From Candidatus Eiseniibacteriota bacterium (GTDB lineage Bacteria > Eisenbacteria > RBG-16-71-46 > CAZAMP01), in contig OZ245046.1 of the NCBI GenBank assembly GCA_965224245.1, positions 4,384,001 to 4,448,000 on the forward strand: DNA of 64,000 bases, in the 5' to 3' direction. Shown here one piece after another: positions 10,640 through 22,102 of this stretch. The stretch's first letter is position 1. Each line of letters begins with the position of its first letter. A model generated the notes under the pieces. That model did not search any database, had not been told where the DNA came from, and saw only the letters and a program-made list of their open reading frames with translations. Position numbers and translations under genes: made by a program.

Positions 10640-10965
10640 GTGGATCCTCGACCTCGGTTGAAACGAGCCGTTGCATGCACGGACCCCCGGGCGCGGCTCC
10701 GGTGATCGTGGACGCGATCGAGCCCGACGCCGCGCCCGTGCTCCGCAGCGGGTCCGGGTCGGCGCCCGCCGACCCACTCGCCCCCCGCTCTCGTCCGATG
10801 ATATACTCGGCCGCGTGCGAATGCGCGGCGTGCCTCTCACGTGCATGCGACGCGCGCCGGGATCCGTGCGTTCGCTGGCCGTCTTCCCCCACGGCGCGAC
10901 GACTTTCGCGAGTCGACACACTCACAAAACCGCCACCGGTCGGCCGGCAGCCGGAAGGGTATGTC

Positions 10966-13284
10966 ATGTCTCCACGTCCGCACGCGTGCTTCGCCGTCCG
11001 CCGGCCGTCCCGTCTCCGGGCCGTGCTCCCCGTCCTCGTCACCGGCCTCGCCACGACGCACGCGCTGGCCGGCGCCGGAGATCCGGTGGTCACGGTCCAC
11101 TTTCCGAACGGCGGCGAGTCCCTGAACGGCGGCGACACCACCAACATCGTGTGGACCGCGACCGACGACACGGCGGTGACGCTGGTCAACGTGTACTACC
11201 GTGACGGTGCGGCCGAGGAATGGACCCCCATTGCCCTCGGGCTGGCCGACTCCGGCGCGCTCCCGTGGTCCGTGCACAACACGCCGACCTCCGAGGCACG
11301 CGTGCGCGTGGTCGCCGAGGATCCGTTCGGCAACACGGGCGAGGATCAGAGCGACACCGACTTCACGATCAACGCCCAGACGGGATCTCGCGTGTCGACG
11401 ACGCTTCGCGACTTCGAGCAGCCGGGCACGCAACCGTTCGAGGCGGGCTTTCTGCATCCGAACTCGAACTGTCTCTCGTGCCACAGCGGATACGCCGACC
11501 ACTCCCCTGGAAGCAGCTACCTGGGCTCGATGATGGCCAACGCGGCCCGCGATCCGCTCTTCTACGCGGCGCTCGCCATCGCCGAGCAGGACGCCGCGTC
11601 GTCGGGCGACCTGTGCATCCGCTGTCACTCGCCCTATGCCTGGGTCAACGGCCGCAGCAATCCCACCGACGCCGGTGCGTTCACGACCGAGGATCGCGAG
11701 GGCATCACGTGTCACTTCTGCCACAAGCTCGTCGATCCGGTGTACACGGGCGAGAACCCCGCCGACGACGTCGCGGTGCTGGACGCCCTCGACGAGGTCC
11801 CGACCGAGTTCGGGTCCGGGCGCTACGTCGTCGACCCCGAGGACCGACGCCGCGGCCCGTACTCGAGCGTCTCGCCGCCGCATCAGTGGCGATACTCGCC
11901 GTTCCACAACTCGAGCGACCTCTGCGCGACGTGCCACGACGTCTCCAATCCCGCGTTCGAGCGCGTGGGCCCGATGGACTACGCGCTCGGGAGCATCGAC
12001 GCGCCGCCCGCCGACTTCGGCGCCGGGCACCTGTTCCCGGTCGAGCGCACGTACAGCGAGTGGCTGGCGTCGGACTTCGTGTCCGGTGTGTTCGCGCCCG
12101 AGTTCGCCGGCAACCGTCCCGACGGCATCGTGTCGACCTGTCAGGACTGCCACATGGCCGACGTGCTGGGTAAGGGCTGTGGCTTCGAGTCCGCTCCCGA
12201 GCGCTCGGATCTGGGCGTGCACGACCTGACCGGCGGCAACACGTGGATGCCGCAGGTGATCAAGAAGGCATTCGCGAGCGAGATCGTTCCCGAGTACATG
12301 GACGCCGCCACCCTGCGCGCGCAGGCGATGCTCGAGAAGGCGGCGGTGCTCTCGATCGCCATCACGGCCGAGGCCGATTCGTTCCGCGCGCACGTGACGG
12401 TGACCAACCGCTCCGGTCATCGGCTGCCCACCGGGTACCCCGAGGGACGCCGGATGTGGGTGAATCTCGCCGCGTACGACGGCGTCGGCACCAAGGTGTA
12501 CGAGTCGGGCGCCTACGACGTCGCGACCGCCGAGCTCACGTACGACTCCGACCTGGCCATCTACGAGGCCGAGCTGGGTCTGTCGCCGTCGCTCGCCGCG
12601 TCGCTGGGTCTGCCGGCGGGTCCATCGTTCCATTTCGTGCTCAACGACACGCTCTACAAGGACACGCGCATCCCGCCGCTCGGATTCACGAACGCCGCCT
12701 TCGAGGACTTCGGGATGCCACCGGTCGATCCCGATCACGAGGGTCCCGGCCCTCGGTACGAGGACGGCCAGAACTGGGACACGCCCACCTACGCGCTGCC
12801 GGCCTCCGCCGCCGAGGTGATCGCCACGCTCTACTATCAGACCACGTCCAAGGAATACGTCGAGTTCCTGCGCGACGAGAACGTGACCAGCTCGGCCGGG
12901 TCGGACATGTACGACCTGTGGGTGGCCAATGGTCGCGCGGCCCCCGTCGTGATGGCCGCCGACACGACGTCCACCGACGTCATCGGCGTGCCCGGCCACG
13001 ACGTCGCCGCGGGGATCGGCCTCGACGCGATCGCGAACCCGTTCCGGGGTCCTCTGGCGCTCCGGCTGGATCTCGCCGCGAGCGCCGACGTCTCGCTCGA
13101 GGTGTACGACGTTCACGGCCGGCGGATCGCGAGGGAGCGCTTCGGCGAGATCGGCGGCGGCGCGCACCGTCTGGTCTGGGACGGCACGACCGCCGGCGGA
13201 CACGACGCCGGCCCCGGCGTGTACTTCGCGCGTGTCCGCGTCGGTGACCGCGTTCTCTCCCGGCGAGCCGTGCGACTCGACTGA
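10966..13284 (+). CDS. Secreted multiheme c-type cytochrome (5 CxxCH) with N-terminal Ig-like and C-terminal FlgD-Ig/T9SS-like domain
   Basis: CLSCH, CIRCH, CHFCH, CATCH, CQDCH; GHRLPTGYPEGRRMW; PNGGE Ig motif; NPFRG...VYDVHGRR...WDG...PGVYF. Confidence 0.88.
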   Translation: MSPRPHACFAVRRPSRLRAVLPVLVTGLATTHALAGAGDPVVTVHFPNGGESLNGGDTTNIVWTATDDTAVTLVNVYYRDGAAEEWTPIALGLADSGALPWSVHNTPTSEARVRVVAEDPFGNTGEDQSDTDFTINAQTGSRVSTTLRDFEQPGTQPFEAGFLHPNSNCLSCHSGYADHSPGSSYLGSMMANAARDPLFYAALAIAEQDAASSGDLCIRCHSPYAWVNGRSNPTDAGAFTTEDREGITCHFCHKLVDPVYTGENPADDVAVLDALDEVPTEFGSGRYVVDPEDRRRGPYSSVSPPHQWRYSPFHNSSDLCATCHDVSNPAFERVGPMDYALGSIDAPPADFGAGHLFPVERTYSEWLASDFVSGVFAPEFAGNRPDGIVSTCQDCHMADVLGKGCGFESAPERSDLGVHDLTGGNTWMPQVIKKAFASEIVPEYMDAATLRAQAMLEKAAVLSIAITAEADSFRAHVTVTNRSGHRLPTGYPEGRRMWVNLAAYDGVGTKVYESGAYDVATAELTYDSDLAIYEAELGLSPSLAASLGLPAGPSFHFVLNDTLYKDTRIPPLGFTNAAFEDFGMPPVDPDHEGPGPRYEDGQNWDTPTYALPASAAEVIATLYYQTTSKEYVEFLRDENVTSSAGSDMYDLWVANGRAAPVVMAADTTSTDVIGVPGHDVAAGIGLDAIANPFRGPLALRLDLAASADVSLEVYDVHGRRIARERFGEIGGGAHRLVWDGTTAGGHDAGPGVYFARVRVGDRVLSRRAVRLD

Positions 13285-13480: not shown

Positions 13481-14308
13481 ATGGACGGAGACAACGTTCA
13501 GCAGGCACTCGACGCGGTGATTCCGGTGGTGACCCACTACGGTCTTCAGATCATCGGGGCGGTGCTGATCCTGATCGTGGGACGGATCGCCGCGAGCGGG
13601 GTCGGCTCCTTCGTCGACCGGGCACTCGTCCGGGCCAAGGTCGACGACTCGCTCCGGAAGTTCCTGGTGAGTCTGGTCCGGATCGCCGTCATCGCGTTCG
13701 CCGTGATCGCGGCACTCGCGAAGTTCGGCGTACAGACGACGTCGTTCGTCGCGGTCCTCGGAGCCGCCGGCTTCGCGATCGGCTTCGCGCTCCAGGGTTC
13801 GCTCGGGAACTTCGCGTCCGGCGTCATGCTCCTGATCTTCCGCCCCATCAAGGTCGGTGATCTGATCGAGGCCGCCGGCTACCTGGGCGTCGTGGAAGAG
13901 GTCGGCCTCTTCGTGACCACGATCAACACGCTCGACAACCAGCGCGTGATCATCCCCAACAGCACCCTCACGCGCGGTGTCATCAACAACGTCAACGGAA
14001 ACGGGCTGCGTCGCGTGGACATGACCGCGGGCATCTCGTACGCCGACGACATGGACAAGGCCAAGACGCTGTGCATGGAGGTTCTCCGGTCGCATCCGAA
14101 AGTGCTGGCCGATCCGGAGCCGACGGTCGCGGTGTTCGAGATGGCCGACTCCTCGGTGAATCTCGTGGTCCGACCCTGGTGCAACGGCGACGACTACTGG
14201 ACCGTCTGGTTCGAGTGCACGCAGCGGGTGAAGGAGGCGTTCGACGCCAACGGGATCACGATCCCGTTCCCGCAGCGGGACGTTCACCTTTTGCAGCCCA
14301 GGACCTGA
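13481..14308 (+). CDS. mscS: Small-conductance mechanosensitive channel
   Basis: GAAGFAIGFALQGSLGNFASG, IPNS, IPFPQRDVH; RBS AAAGGA. Confidence 0.95.
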   Translation: MDGDNVQQALDAVIPVVTHYGLQIIGAVLILIVGRIAASGVGSFVDRALVRAKVDDSLRKFLVSLVRIAVIAFAVIAALAKFGVQTTSFVAVLGAAGFAIGFALQGSLGNFASGVMLLIFRPIKVGDLIEAAGYLGVVEEVGLFVTTINTLDNQRVIIPNSTLTRGVINNVNGNGLRRVDMTAGISYADDMDKAKTLCMEVLRSHPKVLADPEPTVAVFEMADSSVNLVVRPWCNGDDYWTVWFECTQRVKEAFDANGITIPFPQRDVHLLQPRT

Positions 14309-14428
14309 CTCGGGTCGCGTCGTTGCGCCGGCGCGGCCTCGATCGCTCGACTCGCGCTCGACGGCGAGGGACCCGCTGACGGGTTCCTGCCGTTGTCGCC
14401 GGCCCCGCGCGACGGGTAGACTCGCGCC

Positions 14429-15010
14429 ATGTCGCGAACGCTGCTTCTCGCCTCGACGTCCCGCTATCGGCGGGAGCTCATGGACCGACTCGGCGTCGCC
14501 TACCAGGCGATCGCCCCGAGCTACGTGGAGGCGCCGATGCCCGGAAGCGCCCCCGACGTCGTCACGTCGCACCATGCGCTCGAGAAGGCCCTCAGCGTCG
14601 CACGGGAGCACCCCGACGCGTACGTGATCGGGTCGGATCAGGTCGCGTACTTCGAGGGAGAGGCGCTGGGAAAGCCCGGCACCCCGGAGCGGGCTCGAGC
14701 CCAGCTCCGGCGCCTGAGCGGGCGCGAGCACGTGCTCGTCACGTCGGTGGCTCTCGTTCGTCTCTCCGACGGACACACGCGGACGCACGTCGATCAGACG
14801 ACGATCGGGATTCGTCCGCTCGACGACGCGGAGATCGCACGGTACGTGGAGCGCGACGACCCGAGCGACTGCACCGGCTCGTACAAGTCCGAGGGGCTCG
14901 GGGTCACGCTGCTCGACCATCAGACGGGGCGTGATCCGTCCGCCGTGGTCGGGCTGCCGTTGATGGCGGTGGCGTCGATGCTGCGCGAGGTCGGCTTCGA
15001 CGTGCCGTGA
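14429..15010 (+). CDS. maf: Maf-family nucleoside triphosphate pyrophosphatase (YceF-like)
   Basis: LASTSRYRRELM, IGSDQV, GKPGT, GSYKSEGLG, VGLPL. Confidence 0.92.
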   Translation: MSRTLLLASTSRYRRELMDRLGVAYQAIAPSYVEAPMPGSAPDVVTSHHALEKALSVAREHPDAYVIGSDQVAYFEGEALGKPGTPERARAQLRRLSGREHVLVTSVALVRLSDGHTRTHVDQTTIGIRPLDDAEIARYVERDDPSDCTGSYKSEGLGVTLLDHQTGRDPSAVVGLPLMAVASMLREVGFDVP

Positions 15011-15043
15011 GGCCGCGCCCCGGGCCTCGACGGCTCGCGGACC

Positions 15044-15847
15044 CTATGCGAGCAGCGACGGGATCGACGCGACCGACTTCACGACGGCATCGGGCGTGAC
15101 GCACGCCTCCGTCGCGTCGCCGGGACGGAACTTCCCGGTCCGCACGAGGACGCCGCGCATGCCGGCCGCCTGCGCCCCCCCGACGTCCGAGACGACGTCG
15201 TCACCGACCATCACCGCCTCGGTCGCCTCGACCCCGGCGTCGGCCAGGGCAAGGCGAAAGAAGTCCTCCGACGGCTTCCCCAGGACGAGTGCGCGTGTGC
15301 CCGTGGCGTACTCCAGCGCGGCGACGAAGGCACCGATGTCGATGCGAGGACCGTCGGGCTCCTGCCAGTAGCGACCCTTGTGGAGCGCGACCACCTCGGC
15401 ACCATCGAGAACGGTCCGGAACAGCTCGTTGATCAGGTCGTAGGTCCACGATCCTCCGATGTCGCCGATCACGACGACGTCCGCCGGCGATCGCGGCGTC
15501 GCGACGATCGCGCCGGCGAACTCCGATTGCACGTCGTCGGCCACCACGAGTCGGACCCGATCGCCCGATCTCGCCGACACGTGGAGCACGCCGGCGGACA
15601 GCGCGCTCAGGACCTCGTGTGGCTCGATCGACAGCCCCAGCGAGCGTAGCCGTCGGTGCAGGCCTTCTCGGCTCACGCGCGTGGTGTTCGTGACGAAGCG
15701 AAGCGTCAGGCCGCGGTCCCGGAGCGAGGCGATCGTCTCGTTGCCGCCCGGGACGAGCGCATCCCCGACGTAGAACACTCCGTCCAGATCGAAGAAGACG
15801 GCGCGGACGTTCGAGAGGGAAGCCGTCGCGTCAGGCATGGGGCTCAT
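15044..15847 (-). CDS. HAD subfamily IIA hydrolase (LHPP/TIGR01458-like)
   Basis: FDLDGV, VTNTT, GKPSEDFF, MVGDDVVSDVGGAQAAG, VRTGKFR. Confidence 0.92.
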   Translation of the reverse strand: MSPMPDATASLSNVRAVFFDLDGVFYVGDALVPGGNETIASLRDRGLTLRFVTNTTRVSREGLHRRLRSLGLSIEPHEVLSALSAGVLHVSARSGDRVRLVVADDVQSEFAGAIVATPRSPADVVVIGDIGGSWTYDLINELFRTVLDGAEVVALHKGRYWQEPDGPRIDIGAFVAALEYATGTRALVLGKPSEDFFRLALADAGVEATEAVMVGDDVVSDVGGAQAAGMRGVLVRTGKFRPGDATEACVTPDAVVKSVASIPSLLA

Positions 15848-15909
15848 CCACGTAGCAGGTCGACCTCAGTCCATCCTCCCGAGCTCGCCGGCTCCGGGAG
15901 TCGAGTGCG

Positions 15910-17541
15910 CTATTGCCCCGGTGCGTTGTCGGAGTCCTCCGCCCTCCTGCTGGACGGAACGAAGGCGAGGACGAGCCGCGCCAGGGCAAATCCGATGACG
16001 AAACCCACGACGCCACCCTGGGCTCCACCGGGCACCGCACCGCCCGTCGTCCAGTTCAGAACGACGAACACACCTCCGCCCACGAAACCGGCGGCCATCG
16101 CGATCTTGTTCTTGTCGATCGACTCCCGTCGAGCCGTCTCGATGACCGGACTTTCGCTCCTCTCGGCGCTACCCAGGAGCCCGTACTGCCTCCCCACACG
16201 GAGCGCCAGTACCAGCCAGATGACGACGAGGATGACGTTGAAGATCGCGAATCCCCGCGTCCCGAGCCCCAGAAACGTCGTGCCCAGAAACACCGTGAGG
16301 GCCTGGAGCGCGTCCCCGGCCCGCACGAAGATCGTGTCGATCGCCTGCTTGGCCATGTACTTCTGCTCACGCGTGGTGGGCAGGAAGAGGACGCCCCTGA
16401 GCGTGTTCTGAAGCGAGTAGTCGGTCGCGTTCTCGGCCGTCTTGATCCACCGGACGTAGGCCAGCACCGGGACCACCGCCGCCATCAGGTAGCCGCCGAG
16501 TGCGATGACGGGGAGGATCATCAACGCCACGCGGACGCCGAGGTACTTGAGTACGCGCGAGACGAGGAACAGCTGGATGACCACGCCGGCGATGTTCACC
16601 CACTTGAAGAACCCCGAGTAGAAGCGTCCGATCCACTCCCCCTGGGAGAGCCCGCCTGCGGTCCCGTCCGCGACCGCGGCCGAGGCGGCGTCGGACACGA
16701 GGCGACTCAGGATGTACTCACCGGTGGTGTTGACCCAGTTCAGCACCAGGATCAGAAGCGCGATCATCAGAAGGTACCGCTCGCCGATCACGAGCTGGAA
16801 CGCGCGCAGCGGTCCCCCGGTCGTGATCGGCTCGTCCTCCCGGGTGGCGACCGTTCCCGTGCCCTCGCGGCGGCGCTCGCGCGCGTCCACGACGTTCGTG
16901 ATCCCCATCGCGATCGTCAGGAGCACCGCCGACAGGATCAGGAGCTGGTAGACGTTCAGCGGCGCGACGGCGACGCCGGCCAGCGGCACCGTGAACCCGT
17001 CCAGGAGCTTCTCGGTGATCGCGCTTCCCAGGACGGCGCCGATGGACGCGCCGAAACCCACGATGGCGAACAGGCGCTTTCCCTGATCCTCGGTGTAGAC
17101 GTCGTTCGCGAAGGCCCAGAACTGCGCGATGACCATCAGGTTGAAGATGCCGACCCAGAGGTAGAACACGACGCCGAGCGGCAGCCCGGTCCGCGACAGC
17201 ACGAAAAACGCGACCAGACACGCGGCGAAGAAGACCGTGACCACGTTGATGAGGCGCCGGCGGGACATCTTCCGCGCCAGCATGCCGTACAACGGAACCA
17301 CCACGAGCAGGAGCAATCCCTGGAAGAAGGACATGTACGCCTTCAGCTCGGGGCCGCCCTCGGTCGCGAGGATCAGCGCCTCGCGCACGGGCTTGATGAT
17401 GTAGTAGCACGTCAGCAGCAGGAAGACGTTCAGCATCAAGAGCAGCGCCGTCCCGGGCTCGCCCGGGCGCACGTCCGCGAAGAGGCTCAGGAATCGCTCG
17501 AGGGGACCCTTGCGACCGGCGTGCGCGCTGTCGGACGTCAT
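15910..17541 (-). CDS. NTT/Tlc (AAA family) ATP/ADP or nucleotide translocase, MFS fold
   Basis: YYIIKPVREAL, FWAFANDVY..QGKRLF, DYSLQNT, KYMAKQAIDTIFVRAGD motifs; about 12 TM plus two extra C-terminal hydrophobic segments. Confidence 0.88.
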   Translation of the reverse strand: MTSDSAHAGRKGPLERFLSLFADVRPGEPGTALLLMLNVFLLLTCYYIIKPVREALILATEGGPELKAYMSFFQGLLLLVVVPLYGMLARKMSRRRLINVVTVFFAACLVAFFVLSRTGLPLGVVFYLWVGIFNLMVIAQFWAFANDVYTEDQGKRLFAIVGFGASIGAVLGSAITEKLLDGFTVPLAGVAVAPLNVYQLLILSAVLLTIAMGITNVVDARERRREGTGTVATREDEPITTGGPLRAFQLVIGERYLLMIALLILVLNWVNTTGEYILSRLVSDAASAAVADGTAGGLSQGEWIGRFYSGFFKWVNIAGVVIQLFLVSRVLKYLGVRVALMILPVIALGGYLMAAVVPVLAYVRWIKTAENATDYSLQNTLRGVLFLPTTREQKYMAKQAIDTIFVRAGDALQALTVFLGTTFLGLGTRGFAIFNVILVVIWLVLALRVGRQYGLLGSAERSESPVIETARRESIDKNKIAMAAGFVGGGVFVVLNWTTGGAVPGGAQGGVVGFVIGFALARLVLAFVPSSRRAEDSDNAPGQ

Positions 17542-17563
17542 GCGTGCTCCCTTCCGAGGGACG

Positions 17564-19354
17564 TCAGCGATCGATGGCGACCACTCGGCCCGACGCGCGC
17601 GAGACGTAGGCGACGACCGATCCGCTCCAGCCGTCGCCGCGGTCCACCTGGTAGTCGAGGGCCACGAACGGACGGTCGTCGGCCGGAGCGGCGTCGATGG
17701 CGTGTCCGATGCGCGGGTCGGCGAGGTCCACCCTCAGCTCGGAGAGATCGAACCAGCGCGACCACGACGCCGCGTTGCGGTCGGCGTTCACGGCCGCCAC
17801 CCGGACGCGGTACCGCGTGGTCTCGCCGTCCGCGAGGCCACGTTCGACGGCGAGGTCGTGTCCGACCACCTCCGAGCCGTGAACCTGGAAGAACTCGAGC
17901 GGGGGGATCTTCGCGAACCAGGTGCGCGCGATCGCGTCTCGCCGCTCTCCGATCACCCGAGCCAGGTACCGGGTGGCCTCGGGATTCTGGTAGTGGGCCT
18001 CGCGGCACGCGGCCATGATGTGCGCGTCGGTGAAGGCCGAGATGATCTTGGCCGCCCAGTACGCGTCGTCCGTGGTCTGGTTTGCGAACGCGGGATTGGG
18101 CTGCAGCGGCTTGTACTCGCGCGGGTCGTACGGATCGCTCACGTACGCGCCCACCTCGGCGAGCCCCTCCGGTGGATGCACGCGCCGCCAGGCGTCCTCG
18201 TGGATGCCCAGAGCGAGGATCCGTCCGCCGACGGGCATCACGTCAACTGTGTACTCGTAGCCCCAGCGCTGGGTCGGGCCGTGCGCGCCCGTCCCCAGGG
18301 TGCTGGCGAAGTCGATCAGATGGTGCCGGATGAACCGACGCCCATCCTCCTCGACGAGCATGTCGAGCGAGTTGTGCTGCTTGGTGTCGAAGTGCGCGAT
18401 CCACGCCGCGAACGTGTAGAGGCCCCGGAGCTCCCGGCGATGCTCGTGATCGATGCGATCGTTGGGGTCGTCATCGCGCCGACCGATGTAGTCGAACGGA
18501 CCCACCGGTCGGCCGTCCAGGAACTTGCTGGCGATGGCGCGCCAGGAACCTCCGTCGCTGTGCACGTCGGCCAGGATGGCGTCGATGTCGGCCACCGTCA
18601 TCGGTCGCTTCTTGCCGTCCTTCTCGCTGATCTTCACGTCGTCACCGAGGCGCAGCTGATCCCGCCGGAAGTACACGATGTTGTCGTCGGGGACGAAGTA
18701 ACCCGCGGCGTACAGGAGACGCGCCGAGATCACGCCCGCGCCGCTCGCCATCGACGGATGGTCGGGGGGATCGAACTTGATCAGATACAGCTCGCCGTTC
18801 CCGTCGCGGACCGTGAAGCCCGGCGTGACACCCTCGGTCTTCGCGCGCACGATCGTCCACGGCTCATGGGTCGATGGACCCCGCGAGCCGTCCCCGGGGC
18901 CGGCGGCGACCTCCTCGGGCGTCATCGGGAACAGTCCGATGCGATTGGTGAACCAGGACGAGTTCGGGACCTCGTCGAGCGCGTTCACGTTCGCCGCGTG
19001 GGGCACGTGGTCCCCGCCGAACAGCACGCCGACGTGACGGATCAGGCGGCTCGGCTTCGTCCACCGCCCGAACGGGCGCACGACCGATTCTCGAGGACCA
19101 TCCCAAAGAAGATTGGGCTCGCGCTCCTCGGGCGGCTCGATGTCGTGACGATCGTCGTCGTACCAGACGATCGGCGCGTCCACGAGCGGGGCCTCGGCGC
19201 GAGCGACCCGAGACTCGAGAACAACGACCGTGCCCGCCACGGCCAGTGCGAGTACCGATGCGGCGCCGGCGCCGCTTGCCCCCGCCAGAGCGGCCCTCAC
19301 CGCCCGCCCCGCGCGCCGCGCCGCGTCAGCGCGACGGGACCGGATTGCGACCAT
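17564..19354 (-). CDS. Exported hypothetical protein with atypical kinase-like motifs
   Basis: N-terminal basic/hydrophobic leader ending ARA-EA; AKTEGVTPGF (Gly-rich), YLIKFD (Lys), HFDTKQHNSL (catalytic-loop-like), LIDFASTLG (DFG-like). Confidence 0.7.
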   Translation of the reverse strand: MVAIRSRRADAARRAGRAVRAALAGASGAGAASVLALAVAGTVVVLESRVARAEAPLVDAPIVWYDDDRHDIEPPEEREPNLLWDGPRESVVRPFGRWTKPSRLIRHVGVLFGGDHVPHAANVNALDEVPNSSWFTNRIGLFPMTPEEVAAGPGDGSRGPSTHEPWTIVRAKTEGVTPGFTVRDGNGELYLIKFDPPDHPSMASGAGVISARLLYAAGYFVPDDNIVYFRRDQLRLGDDVKISEKDGKKRPMTVADIDAILADVHSDGGSWRAIASKFLDGRPVGPFDYIGRRDDDPNDRIDHEHRRELRGLYTFAAWIAHFDTKQHNSLDMLVEEDGRRFIRHHLIDFASTLGTGAHGPTQRWGYEYTVDVMPVGGRILALGIHEDAWRRVHPPEGLAEVGAYVSDPYDPREYKPLQPNPAFANQTTDDAYWAAKIISAFTDAHIMAACREAHYQNPEATRYLARVIGERRDAIARTWFAKIPPLEFFQVHGSEVVGHDLAVERGLADGETTRYRVRVAAVNADRNAASWSRWFDLSELRVDLADPRIGHAIDAAPADDRPFVALDYQVDRGDGWSGSVVAYVSRASGRVVAIDR

Positions 19355-20771
19355 GAAAGAGCCCGCCCTTCGCGAACTGGAAGACCTGATCCGCCCGGAT
19401 CCGGAACACGGTGTCGTCCTCGCTCTTCGCGTACTCGATGCGCCCCACGAAGCCCCACCGTCCGACCAGGCGCAGCCCTCCGCCGTATGACGTGGTCGCG
19501 TTGTCGGCGCTGATCTCCTCGTTGTCGCCGAAGACCTGTCCGACGTCGGTAAAGAGGTAGGCGTCGAGCCCGATGTCGTCGGCGTGGGAGGCCGCCCAGA
19601 CCGGCCAGCGATACTCGGCGGTGAACGCCGTCATGCCGCGATCGCGCCAGCGGTAGTCCTCATAGCCACGCAGGAGATCGGGGTCGTCGTTCGTCATCAG
19701 ACGCTGGAACGGCACGCGGCTCGTGCCGCCACCGGCCACGGGATCGATCCACGAGTAGTACGCGCGGAAAGCGAGGACTCGCTTGTCCCGCCACAGGCGC
19801 ACGAACTGCTGGAGCTCCACGCGATACGACCAGAAGTTCAGATCCGGAAGCTCGGACCCGGTCTCGGTGAAGTACGACGCCGTGACCCGGCGGGACCCCG
19901 ACGACACGGGACGGCCGGTCTCGGTGGTGGTGTCGTGGATGAGCGAGGCACCGGCGGTCACGCCGTCCGAACGCGCGCCGTACCCGAACGGCACGTCGTA
20001 CACCTCCGGCAGCGTCGGCGAGTCCTCACGGCGTGGACCCCGCGCGCCGACCGTCGTGTAGCGGACGTCCAGCTCGGAGCTGACCGAGTGCGTGAGCTCC
20101 CGCTCCAGCGTCGCCCCCACCCATGACATCTCGCGGCGGAAGAACGACTCCTCCGCCGACTCGGTGCGGTCGGTCGGTCCGAAGCCGAAGTAGCGCGCGT
20201 TCGGCGTCATCCGGTAGCCGGCACCGACCTGCAGCGCGGTGGGGCGGCCGAGGCCCAGATAGATGCCGAGGTTCACCTTGTGGTGTCCGTTCACCGACGT
20301 CATCCCACCGAGCCGAAAGCGATTGTCGGGTCCGAAGAACGCGTCGTGCACGAGCGTGGCGCCGCCACCGAAGCCGGTCAGGCCACCCGCCGAGAAGCTC
20401 ACGGTCGCGCCGTACGGAAGCTCACGGGGGCCGACCAGCTCGGAGATCCGGTAGACCACGTTGGACTCGTCGAGTGCGATGACGCCGCTGCCGACCGCGC
20501 TGGAGAACAGGCGCAACGGCGCGCCGATGACGTGGTACGGCACGTCCACGGCCGCCTGCCAGGCCGGCGCCCCGGGCTGCTCGAGGGGGGTTCGGACCGA
20601 GTCGTGCTCGGCCGGGATCGGCCCCCAGTAGCTCTCGCCGACTCCGTCGGTGTTGTCGGCGTGCGCGGCCGTCGTGGCCGCGATCATGAACGCGACCACC
20701 GACAGCGCGGTCGGGAGCGCTCCGCTACCGCGCGAACGTCGTCGTACCTCGCGGATCGGACAAACGGGCAT
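19326..20771 (-). CDS. Omp85 (BamA/TamA-like) beta-barrel outer-membrane protein without clear POTRA domains
   Basis: Signal peptide (AAHA-D); LLRGYEDYRWRD (VRGF/Y-like), AEYRWP, FTDVGQVF, SYGGGLR. Start uncertain (20771 or 20687). Confidence 0.8.
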   Translation of the reverse strand: MPVCPIREVRRRSRGSGALPTALSVVAFMIAATTAAHADNTDGVGESYWGPIPAEHDSVRTPLEQPGAPAWQAAVDVPYHVIGAPLRLFSSAVGSGVIALDESNVVYRISELVGPRELPYGATVSFSAGGLTGFGGGATLVHDAFFGPDNRFRLGGMTSVNGHHKVNLGIYLGLGRPTALQVGAGYRMTPNARYFGFGPTDRTESAEESFFRREMSWVGATLERELTHSVSSELDVRYTTVGARGPRREDSPTLPEVYDVPFGYGARSDGVTAGASLIHDTTTETGRPVSSGSRRVTASYFTETGSELPDLNFWSYRVELQQFVRLWRDKRVLAFRAYYSWIDPVAGGGTSRVPFQRLMTNDDPDLLRGYEDYRWRDRGMTAFTAEYRWPVWAASHADDIGLDAYLFTDVGQVFGDNEEISADNATTSYGGGLRLVGRWGFVGRIEYAKSEDDTVFRIRADQVFQFAKGGLFHGRNPVPSR

Positions 20772-20893
20772 GAACGGGCTCCGTGGGCTGGGTGTCCGCA
20801 TGCGAACGGTGGCCGGAGATGGCGGAGTGTTTCCGACGCCCCCCGTGATGTCAACCTTTGGCATCCCGCGAGGAACCCCATAGACTTCTCGAC

Positions 20894-22102
20894 ATGACAC
20901 TCACGACGCTGGCCGACGCTCGGCGGCGGCTCGCCGAGCGCACGGAGCCGCTCCAGACGATCGACGTGCCGCTGGCCGACGCCCACGGGCTCCGCCTCGC
21001 GGAAGACGTCGACGCCGACATGGACATGCCGCCACTCGACGTCTCGGCGATGGACGGGTACGCGGTGCGCGCCGCCGACTCGAACCGGGCCGACGCCCTC
21101 CGCGTCGCGTTCGAGATCCAGGCCGGATGGGTGCCCGAGGCGTTGCCCCCGGGGACCGCTGCGCGCATCTTCACCGGCGCCCCGCTTCCATCGGGCGCGG
21201 ACGCGGTCGTGCCACAGGAGAAGGCCACCCGCCTCGACTCCGGCGCGGTCCGGCTCGCGCCCTCGGAGCCGGGAGATCACGTTCGCCGGCGGGGCGAGCT
21301 GTACCGCCGCGGACGCCGCATCCTCTGCGCCGGGACGCGTCTGACCGCGGCCGCGACCGGGCTCGCCGCCGGGGCCGGGGGCCACCGACTGCGGTGTATC
21401 CGCCGCCCGACACTGGCCATTCTCGCCACGGGCAGCGAGCTGGTCCCGTTCGACGTCACGCCGCCTCCCGGCTCGATCCGCGACTCCAACACCCCGACGC
21501 TCCGATCGCTGGCCACCGAGTCCCGGGTCGACGTGGTCTCGGCGCTCCACTCGACCGACGACGCGTCCGAGCTCGAGGGGCTCCTCGCCTCGTCCCTCGC
21601 GACGGCCGACGTCGTGGTGACGTCCGGCGGGGTGTCGGTCGGAGACTTCGATCTCGTCCCCGGCGCCGTCGAGCGCGCAGGTGGCGAGATCCTCGTCCAT
21701 CGGGTGGCGATGCGACCCGGCAAGCCGATCCTCGTGGCGCGCGTCGGCACGACCTGGTTCGTCGGGCTGCCCGGGAATCCGATGGCCGTCGTGGTGGGGT
21801 GGCGACTGTTCGTCAGGCCGCTCATCGAGGCGCTGGCCGGAGACGAGACCGCGTTCGACGAGGCCCCCGTCGAGGTCGCACTCGACCGAGACATGTCGAA
21901 CCCGACCGACCGACCCGTGTTTCATCCGGTGCGACTGGGTGTGGGCGCCGGTGGACGACCGGTCGCGTCCCCACTCGCGTGGCTCGGCTCCCACGATGTG
22001 GGCGGCGCCGCCACCGCCAACGCCCTCGGTCGCGTCGAGCCCGGAGCCGGTCTCGAGCCGGGAGCGACGATCGCCTGTCTTCCGTTGCCGTGGAGGTGGT
22101 GA
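20894..22102 (+). CDS. moeA: Molybdopterin molybdotransferase
   Basis: SAMDGYAVR, RIFTGAPLPSGADAVV, TSGGVSVGDFD, MRPGKP, GLPGNP. Confidence 0.95.
   Translation: MTLTTLADARRRLAERTEPLQTIDVPLADAHGLRLAEDVDADMDMPPLDVSAMDGYAVRAADSNRADALRVAFEIQAGWVPEALPPGTAARIFTGAPLPSGADAVVPQEKATRLDSGAVRLAPSEPGDHVRRRGELYRRGRRILCAGTRLTAAATGLAAGAGGHRLRCIRRPTLAILATGSELVPFDVTPPPGSIRDSNTPTLRSLATESRVDVVSALHSTDDASELEGLLASSLATADVVVTSGGVSVGDFDLVPGAVERAGGEILVHRVAMRPGKPILVARVGTTWFVGLPGNPMAVVVGWRLFVRPLIEALAGDETAFDEAPVEVALDRDMSNPTDRPVFHPVRLGVGAGGRPVASPLAWLGSHDVGGAATANALGRVEPGAGLEPGATIACLPLPWRW

Follow-up and report, generated by a model that had tools for sequence, protein, structure and literature searches.

The eukaryotic Fam20 kinases act in the lumen of the secretory pathway, and the ATP they use is brought in by an ATP/ADP carrier. 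In the usual view, the bacterial periplasm holds no ATP, and outer-membrane processes are powered indirectly. A gene cluster that may bear on this view lies on the minus strand of a 64,000-nucleotide stretch of DNA from a Candidatus Eiseniibacteriota bacterium (GenBank assembly GCA_965224245.1, contig OZ245046.1, positions 4,384,001 to 4,448,000; hereafter the window). It encodes an Omp85-family barrel without POTRA domains, a protein of 596 amino acids (aa) with a kinase-like fold, and a divergent carrier of the TLC/NTT family (Table 1). The evidence computed in this study comprises the fold, the conserved catalytic residues, the leaders, the gene linkage, the co-distribution and a predicted complex. 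It points to an envelope module that may act as a barrel-tethered periplasmic phosphotransferase, with its nucleotide supplied by the carrier.

The Fam20 secretory-pathway kinases (the Golgi casein kinase Fam20C and the xylose kinase Fam20B) are the best structural match of the 596-aa protein (Z 11.5-11.7). The two share a kinase fold outside the cytosol, in a compartment that needs an ATP carrier; this dependence is general background for Fam20 and is proposed here. Unlike Fam20, the 596-aa protein is bacterial, does not match the Fam20 profile PF06702 at E 0.1 or better, is only about 10% identical in the structural alignment, and has a D-x-K/R-x-x-N catalytic loop, a tail resembling fibronectin type III (FN3) domains and a predicted tether to an Omp85 barrel. 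Judged from the models, its likeness to Fam20 is one of fold only. The atypical kinases CotH, HipA/CtkA and PI4KIIα/MavQ occupy the same structural neighbourhood (Z 8.6-11.7). Their sites of action are the cytoplasm or a host cell, and we know of none that partners with a barrel; unlike them, the 596-aa protein has no Pfam match, and the HipA, PI3_PI4_kinase and CotH profiles do not match it at E 0.1 or better.

Carriers of the NTT/Tlc type have been described in Rickettsia, Chlamydia, plastids and microsporidia. The carrier of the window passes the Pfam TLC threshold, and its motifs FW.FAN...KR.F...G.GA and its D/E..K..AID region align with two solved ADP,ATP carrier proteins (9j3j and 9j3n). 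It differs from the described carriers in falling far under the TIGR00769 cutoff, in belonging to free-living hosts with large genomes, and in the proposed direction of transport, which is export. The barrel shares its 16 strands and the loop 6 RGY/F motif with BamA, TamA and FhaC, the last being the pore of two-partner secretion; unlike these proteins, it has no POTRA domain and carries an N-terminal hairpin and helix predicted to clasp the separately encoded kinase-fold protein. In the portions of the literature that were accessible, the question of periplasmic ATP is raised with regard to processes at the outer membrane. One ATP-requiring enzyme that is exported provides a precedent (bioRxiv 10.64898/2026.03.22.713542); to the extent that the available part of that preprint describes it, the enzyme is unrelated to the present system in fold and function. 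Literature searches, judged from titles and the beginnings of abstracts, yielded no published description of such a barrel-kinase-carrier system. Its parts come from known superfamilies, but the family of the kinase-like protein has no name, and no described system has this combination of parts; we regard it as new at the level of the system, with a hypothetical function.

Predicted fold and catalytic residues of the kinase-like protein

The 596-aa protein has no match in Pfam (E <=0.1), in NCBIfam or among PDB sequences. At least 2402 homologues were found; a precomputed Pfam domain is absent from all 120 of those listed, which are labelled hypothetical in their source, and the family comprises 2849 representatives at 50% identity. 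Its AlphaFold2 (AF2) monomer model, built on an alignment of 34 sequences, reached a pLDDT of 80.3 and a pTM of 0.82 and consists of a leader helix, an N-terminal region that is conserved and poorly ordered, a core of two lobes and a β-sandwich at the C-terminus. The model was compared with about 48,000 solved chains in VIA-align. The highest scores of the core were obtained with Fam20C (Z 11.7; root-mean-square deviation (rmsd) 4.6 Å over 264 aligned residues), CtkA (11.7) and hydra Fam20 (11.6), followed by PI4KIIα (10.7), CotH (10.2), HipT/HipA (9.3-9.4), actin-fragmin kinase (9.0) and MavQ (8.6). Residues ~150-485 of the model thus resemble eight atypical kinase families at Z 8.6-11.7 and form a two-lobed kinase fold. 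In a Foldseek search with the same model, Fam20 entries took ranks 1-10 (E 6e-4 to 2e-3, probability 0.92-0.99). The nearest named Atlas clusters in a protein-language search were Fam20C (0.81), HipA_2 (0.79) and PI3_PI4 (0.79), which serve as leads only. The tail of the protein aligned with FN3 domains (Z 7-8.1, rmsd 2.4-3.0 Å).

A reading of the DNA from its letters and open reading frames (the sequence-only reading) had picked out four ordered motifs in this gene and assigned them to a kinase of the Fam20/HipA/PI4K kind, to be checked by structure prediction and Foldseek of 17564-19354. The AF2 model, VIA-align and Foldseek recovered that fold, and the motifs were present in the translation as GVTPGF (residues 175-180), LYLIKFD (189-195), HFDTKQHN (321-328) and LIDFA (346-350), with conservation in the 34 aligned homologues. 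K193, D195, D323, K325, N328, D331 and D348 were invariant in this alignment. In the model, strands 1 and 2 flank the Gly-rich loop 175-180, and K193 closes strand 3 (189-193); D323-x-K-x-x-N328 comes after helix 307-319, and D348-F-A after strand 339-347. The catalytic Lys, Asp, Asn and Asp were also retained in a broader set of 151 representatives at 50% identity, with K193 in 142 of 149, D323 in 145 of 151, N328 in 143 of 151 and D348 in 145 of 151, while position 325 was K in 61 and R in 69. According to the model, the 596-aa protein has a kinase-like fold with an intact catalytic set, and it belongs to no named kinase family by sequence.

Phosphotransfer is the simplest interpretation of the Lys, D-x-[KR]-x-x-N and DF motifs in their canonical order. 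The protein might instead have no phosphorylating role, serving as a nucleotide-sensing or structural stand-in for POTRA that gates or assists the barrel, or catalysing another nucleotide-dependent transfer such as AMPylation or glutamylation. Kinase folds with other chemistry do exist, and SidJ is among the weaker Foldseek matches; no αC glutamate typical of kinases was identified in the protein, and the complex model described below places it at the usual POTRA position. However, the three motifs keep their canonical order across the family, and such a role appears quite unlikely.

Export leaders

The kinase-like protein begins with a basic stretch and a single hydrophobic segment (residues 21-50), followed by ARA and then EAPL. 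The export-like leader noticed in the sequence-only reading is present here, and a comparable one was detected by a simple hydropathy rule in 108 of 120 homologues. The 12 leaderless homologues mostly begin inside the leader, which suggests miscalled starts. Residues 1-9 (19328-19354) read MVAIRSRRA, and 53 of the 120 homologues start with M-x-[AGT]-[ITV]-[RKQ], often followed by F/S-R-R (as in MDAIRFRRA). This conserved twin arginine fits the usual Tat consensus poorly; both Sec and Tat export are possible. The Omp85 protein likewise has a single N-terminal hydrophobic segment (18-36), and its orthologues share the leader ahead of a conserved SYWG motif.

The Omp85 barrel and its predicted complex with the kinase-like protein

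The product of the Omp85 gene matched PF01103 with 39.6 bits (cutoff 24). Its AF2 model (pLDDT 82.2) has 16 strands, preceded by a hairpin (45-52) that bears SYWG and by helices (70-113). In this N-terminal arm, W49 was found in 32 of 32 sequences, G50 in 31 and D57 in 29. LLRGY (366-370) sits in a long loop between strands 11 and 12, where R368 is invariant and G369 occurs in at least 90% of the sequences; the protein thus combines the 16 strands with the loop 6 (V)RGY/F motif of the Omp85 family. Foldseek matched the model to BamA and TamA barrels (E 6e-13 to 1e-10). No Pfam POTRA profile matched, and residues 40-115 are modelled as hairpin and helices instead, in agreement with the earlier description of this protein as a POTRA-less Omp85.

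The mature barrel (39-481) and the mature kinase-like protein (52-596) were co-folded, each with its own alignment. Three runs gave ipSAE values of 0.79, 0.82 and 0.78 against 0.00 for the best control; this score is the program's own confidence and no measurement. The ipSAE mark is reached by 116 of 157 solved complexes and by 2 of 215 mismatched pairs, counts that apply only roughly to the alignments made for this study. The runs agreed in at least 95% of contacts, the partner pLDDT was at least 87, and the interface comprised about 150 contacts. Neither chain resembles any PDB sequence, which excludes a memorised solved complex. On the barrel side, the predicted interface is formed by the arm (40-106) together with residues 328-331, 387-397 and 402-406, which the strand order assigns to turns on the periplasmic side (328-331 and 389-397) and to the ends of strands 12 and 13 that face the periplasm. 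On the kinase side, it is formed by residues 61-148, 300-305, the post-DFA segment 356-390, and residues 487-499 and 591 of the FN3-like domain, which touch the Omp85 hairpin. The N-terminal region of the kinase-like protein holds five residues that are invariant in the 34 aligned homologues (W64, N124, W134, N137 and R138), and residues 81-112 fall below a pLDDT of 50 in the monomer model. These segments may be conserved despite their disorder in the monomer because they form the predicted barrel interface. The complex model supports binding of the kinase-like protein to the barrel, short of proof, and lends weight to the earlier suggestion that the barrel anchors it (ipSAE 0.79, best control 0.00). 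We infer that the kinase-like protein is positioned beneath the barrel, in the place taken by POTRA domains in other Omp85 proteins.

The sequence-only reading had also allowed for secretion of the kinase through the barrel. In this case, the kinase would leave through the barrel, in the manner of two-partner secretion, to work on the cell surface or in the medium, as a surface enzyme or an effector, and the carrier would be linked for some other reason. The order of barrel and cargo genes resembles that of TpsB-TpsA systems, the kinase-like protein bears a leader as well as an FN3-like domain of the sort typical for surface proteins, and CtkA, a top fold match, is titled in the PDB as a Helicobacter proinflammatory kinase. 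However, the pore has no POTRA and the cargo no TPS domain; the model shows a large, confident interface on the periplasmic side (~150 contacts) rather than a threading intermediate; an extracellular enzyme would have no ATP; and the co-distribution of kinase and carrier would be left unexplained. Such secretion is therefore considered very unlikely.

Gene linkage and co-distribution

A pattern scan of one genome per species revealed 584 stretches encoding relatives of the kinase-like protein; the counts of orthologue loci given below refer to the best 80 of these 584. The 80 loci belong to Gemmatimonadota, Eisenbacteria, Krumholzibacteriota, Acidobacteriota and bins labelled Fibrobacteraceae. 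The Omp85 gene lies directly upstream of the kinase gene, in the same orientation, in 76 of the 77 loci with upstream DNA, an arrangement far beyond chance. Where downstream DNA was available (72 loci), the carrier gene directly followed the kinase gene in 34 and lay 0.8-3.5 kb further on, on the same strand, in 13. The survey of neighbourhoods for co-occurrence or fusion called for in the sequence-only reading thus gave two outcomes: linkage of the kinase gene to Omp85 and NTT-like genes held elsewhere (76/77 and 47/72 loci), and fusion of the kinase to barrel or carrier was found in none of 8000 candidates of 1044-2980 residues, which is weak evidence.

The co-distribution of kinase and carrier was counted by hand in 151 genomes of the window's phylum. 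A kinase homologue was present in 83 and a carrier orthologue (E 1e-40) in 74; both were found in 71 (70 of 150 if one unpublished genome, G015, is left out), the kinase only in 12, the carrier only in 3, and neither in 65, a 2x2 table that overstates the association because related genomes are not independent. In family f2, where the trait is patchy, the two genes were nevertheless matched, with the carrier in 26 of 26 kinase-positive and 1 of 34 kinase-negative genomes. Nine genomes with kinase loci lacking the carrier were checked, and in seven of them an orthologue of at least 55% identity was found elsewhere in the genome. Among the neighbours of such unlinked carrier orthologues at four loci (L106-L109), the carrier itself was the sole shared gene.

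A further set consisted of 20 paralogue loci of more distant kinase classes (30-46% identity). A carrier orthologue occurred within about 3 kb of the kinase gene in 13 of the 20. The barrel was found by tblastn in 10 of the 20; three further upstream open reading frames were compared with the barrel profile in hhalign, and all three matched it (probability 98.0-98.5). The kinase of the most distant class (L101 and L102) is paired with Omp85 (Pfam 65 and 49 bits) and not with the carrier. Taken together, the loci show the barrel-kinase pair as the invariant core, often joined by the carrier as a third member; two further genes, which the earlier reading did not mention, are accessories.

These recurrent accessory genes encode an exported metallophosphoesterase and a TLC-HEAT protein. 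The order in the paralogue loci is barrel, kinase, metallophosphoesterase, carrier, TLC-HEAT. The metallophosphoesterase is calcineurin-like (PF00149) and carries either a lipoprotein-type leader with a lipobox-like LGC, VGC or DGC or a signal anchor. Of the paralogue loci, 13 of 20 encode it; among the 80 orthologue loci it is encoded in 15, and in 14 of those 15 its gene is divergent and just upstream of the barrel gene. TLC-HEAT occurs in 13 of 20 paralogue and 30 of 80 orthologue loci. Neither gene is in the window. The sole PDB sequence match of the metallophosphoesterase is diphosphonucleotide phosphatase 1 (E 6e-6), and its NCBIfam matches, to cyclic-nucleotide phosphodiesterases, are weak.

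The carrier and the direction of transport

The carrier gene product matched PF03219 (TLC) with 50.1 bits (cutoff 21), and its only PDB sequence matches were two ADP,ATP carrier proteins (E 1e-6 and 3.5e-6). A crude Kyte-Doolittle scan showed 12 overlapping hydrophobic segments within residues 27-449, about 11 of them distinct, and two more at 480-530, in keeping with about 12 membrane helices. The last ~80 residues (about 460-543; 15910-16161), which contain two glycine-rich hydrophobic segments, are an addition that most carrier orthologues do not have, as matches stop near residues 414-470. In eight genomes (G019, G054, G078, G099, G101, G103, G115 and G158), the carrier was matched in two pieces (about 5-235 and 236-467) lying 100-420 nt apart on the same strand, which probably reflects a long variable central loop and not a split gene. 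Three more TLC-like genes with frames of 967-980 aa occur in the window's own genome (G000:C1 near 4327065, 5045525 and 5529184; L083-L085); they have the size of the TLC-HEAT fusions that adjoin the cluster in other genomes and lie far from the window's cluster.

The presence of a carrier of this family could also reflect scavenging of nucleotides or phosphate in the import direction. External nucleotides would cross the outer membrane; in the periplasm, the kinase-like protein and the metallophosphoesterase would bind or process them, and uptake would follow through the NTT-like carrier, as it does in energy parasites. As far as the accessible text of Major et al. 2017 (PMC5381601) goes, every characterised NTT is an importer, and NTTs are known in free-living bacteria, where their function is left open. 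The metallophosphoesterase of the related loci, moreover, is exported and resembles nucleotide-directed enzymes, as its match to diphosphonucleotide phosphatase 1 illustrates. Against scavenging, conservation of the catalytic Asp, Asn and Asp would be superfluous in a mere binding protein, the kinase has no evident uptake role, and the metallophosphoesterase is absent from the window and has no orthologue in this genome (best match 26 bits). To our knowledge, Omp85 barrels do not serve as nutrient pores. Scavenging is accordingly judged improbable, to about the same degree as a role without phosphorylation.

Proposed function

The reading preferred here is that of a barrel-tethered periplasmic phosphotransferase whose nucleotide is supplied by the carrier, to which we assign a rough probability of 0.45. 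The core would be a three-gene envelope module, with the POTRA-less Omp85 barrel in the outer membrane. The SYWG hairpin and helix arm of the barrel, together with two periplasmic turns, would hold the exported kinase-fold enzyme on the periplasmic face. The inner-membrane TLC/NTT carrier would supply the nucleotide, most likely by passing ATP out of the cytoplasm in return for ADP from the periplasm; where a membrane is negative inside, electrogenic exchange of ATP and ADP favours the exit of ATP, as in mitochondria. The tethered enzyme may then phosphorylate a substrate (protein, glycan or lipid) at the barrel or passing through it. In relatives, the exported metallophosphoesterase and TLC-HEAT could perform the reverse reaction or the clean-up of spent nucleotide. 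Catalysis, the carrier's substrate and direction of transport (ATP, and outward) and the phosphorylation target are what we infer in this scheme.

Several points weigh against this reading, in addition to the αC glutamate that was not identified, the non-independence of the genomes compared and the nature of the ipSAE score. Free periplasmic ATP could leak through porins. The carrier is not within the flank in 25 of the 72 loci, and among the 83 genomes with a kinase homologue, 12 lack a carrier orthologue at E 1e-40, including 8 that hold only the most distant kinase class, in which L101 and L102 pair the kinase with Omp85 and not with the carrier. In two of the nine genomes checked, only TLC-HEAT-type relatives of 28-29% identity were found. 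The carrier is divergent, with 51 bits against TIGR00769, whose cutoff of 387 is not reached, and its characterised relatives are importers.

If the barrel-tethered phosphotransferase does exist, the joining of a carrier to an exported kinase fold that docks on an Omp85 barrel would call the view of an ATP-free periplasm into question and represent a new way to equip such a barrel. It would also define a large enzyme family that has no name (2849 clusters at 50% identity, 584 stretches) and provide a first function for the NTT carriers of free-living bacteria, which the accessible text of Major et al. 2017 (PMC5381601) leaves unexplained. A broader proposal, which we regard as unlikely, is that an ATP economy operates in the periplasm of some diderm phyla (Gemmatimonadota, Eisenbacteria, Krumholzibacteriota, Acidobacteriota and relatives), in which the TLC carrier exports ATP and the barrel-clamped kinase-fold enzyme phosphorylates cargo crossing the outer membrane or drives the crossing. 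If this were true, the system would be a machine of the outer membrane that depends on ATP, and the kinases of the eukaryotic secretory pathway would have a counterpart in bacteria.

Organization of the cluster and neighbouring genes

The list of open reading frames in the window contains four minus-strand frames in one orientation, the first of which extends over 19326-20900 (Table 1). The overlap of 29 bp (19326-19354) and the gaps of 22 bp (17542-17563) and 62 bp (15848-15909) between them agree with the arrangement and spacings first read from the sequence. Both flanks consist of unrelated housekeeping genes (MoeA, MoaC and MoCF-type upstream, on the opposite strand; Maf and MscS downstream); therefore, the cluster is bounded. 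A terminator and promoter scan of 14300-21500 gave no signal exceeding shuffled expectation.

Table 1. Coordinates of the cluster's genes and of predicted protein segments within the window
Feature	Position	Strand	Basis
POTRA-less Omp85-family barrel, 481 aa from ATG 20771	19326..20771	-	PF01103, model, adjacency; frame open to GTG 20900
Omp85 leader, about residues 1-38, ending AHA	20658..20771	-	assigned by inspection
Omp85 N-terminal extension, residues 40-113	20433..20654	-	SYWG hairpin and long helix; predicted kinase-docking arm
16-stranded barrel, residues 116-459; loop 6 LLRGY 366-370	19395..20426	-	strand list, invariant residues
Putative exported atypical kinase-fold protein, 596 aa, unnamed family	17564..19354	-	homologue searches, AF2 model
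Kinase leader, about residues 1-54	19193..19354	-	basic N-region with SRR, hydrophobic core, ARA then EAPL
Conserved N-terminal region, residues 55-150	18905..19192	-	poorly ordered in monomer; in predicted barrel interface
Kinase core, residues 157-483	17906..18886	-	fold matches and residue conservation
C-terminal FN3-like β-sandwich, residues 484-596	17567..17905	-	VIA-align to fibronectin type III
Divergent TLC/NTT-family inner-membrane carrier, 543 aa	15910..17541	-	PF03219, PDB sequence matches, hydropathy, linkage
HAD-IIA hydrolase, 267 aa, adjoining, judged outside the system	15044..15847	-	TIGR01458; without leader; absent from related loci

The fourth gene encodes a HAD-IIA hydrolase (TIGR01458, 238 bits, cutoff 175.95) with a catalytic DxD at residues 20-22. 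The sequence-only reading had given this enzyme the task of reversing the phosphorylation or recycling the phosphate. The protein has no hydrophobic leader, and a homologue was found in none of the 80 related loci; these two results rule it out as a member of the system, and it is regarded as a bystander.

Other neighbours recur in parts of the related loci. In 16 of the 80 loci, a gene for a DegP/HtrA-like protease (Trypsin_2 and PDZ; L017:2452-4527) is found upstream of the gene for the barrel or for the metallophosphoesterase, which could reflect shared synteny or a link to envelope quality control. Nine loci carry, between the genes for kinase and carrier, one for an NhaA Na+/H+ antiporter (PF06965, 446 bits in L017), and these loci (L017, L025, L027 and related Gemmatimonadota) also hold an unassigned open reading frame on the opposite strand. 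The protease, the antiporter and RNA methyltransferases were rejected as members, as each recurs in some of the loci only, in a pattern that looks like local synteny. A gene of the response-regulator/HD-GYP type (Response_reg and HD_5; L101:4074-5705 and L102:4119-5714) is convergent to the kinase gene in both loci examined from the most distant kinase class. Elsewhere in the window, the plus strand encodes an 869-aa protein (10675-13284) with several CxxCH haem motifs, a C-terminal FlgD Ig-like domain and weak matches to MtrC/MtrF-type and cytochrome c3 domains, which may be a surface multihaem cytochrome.

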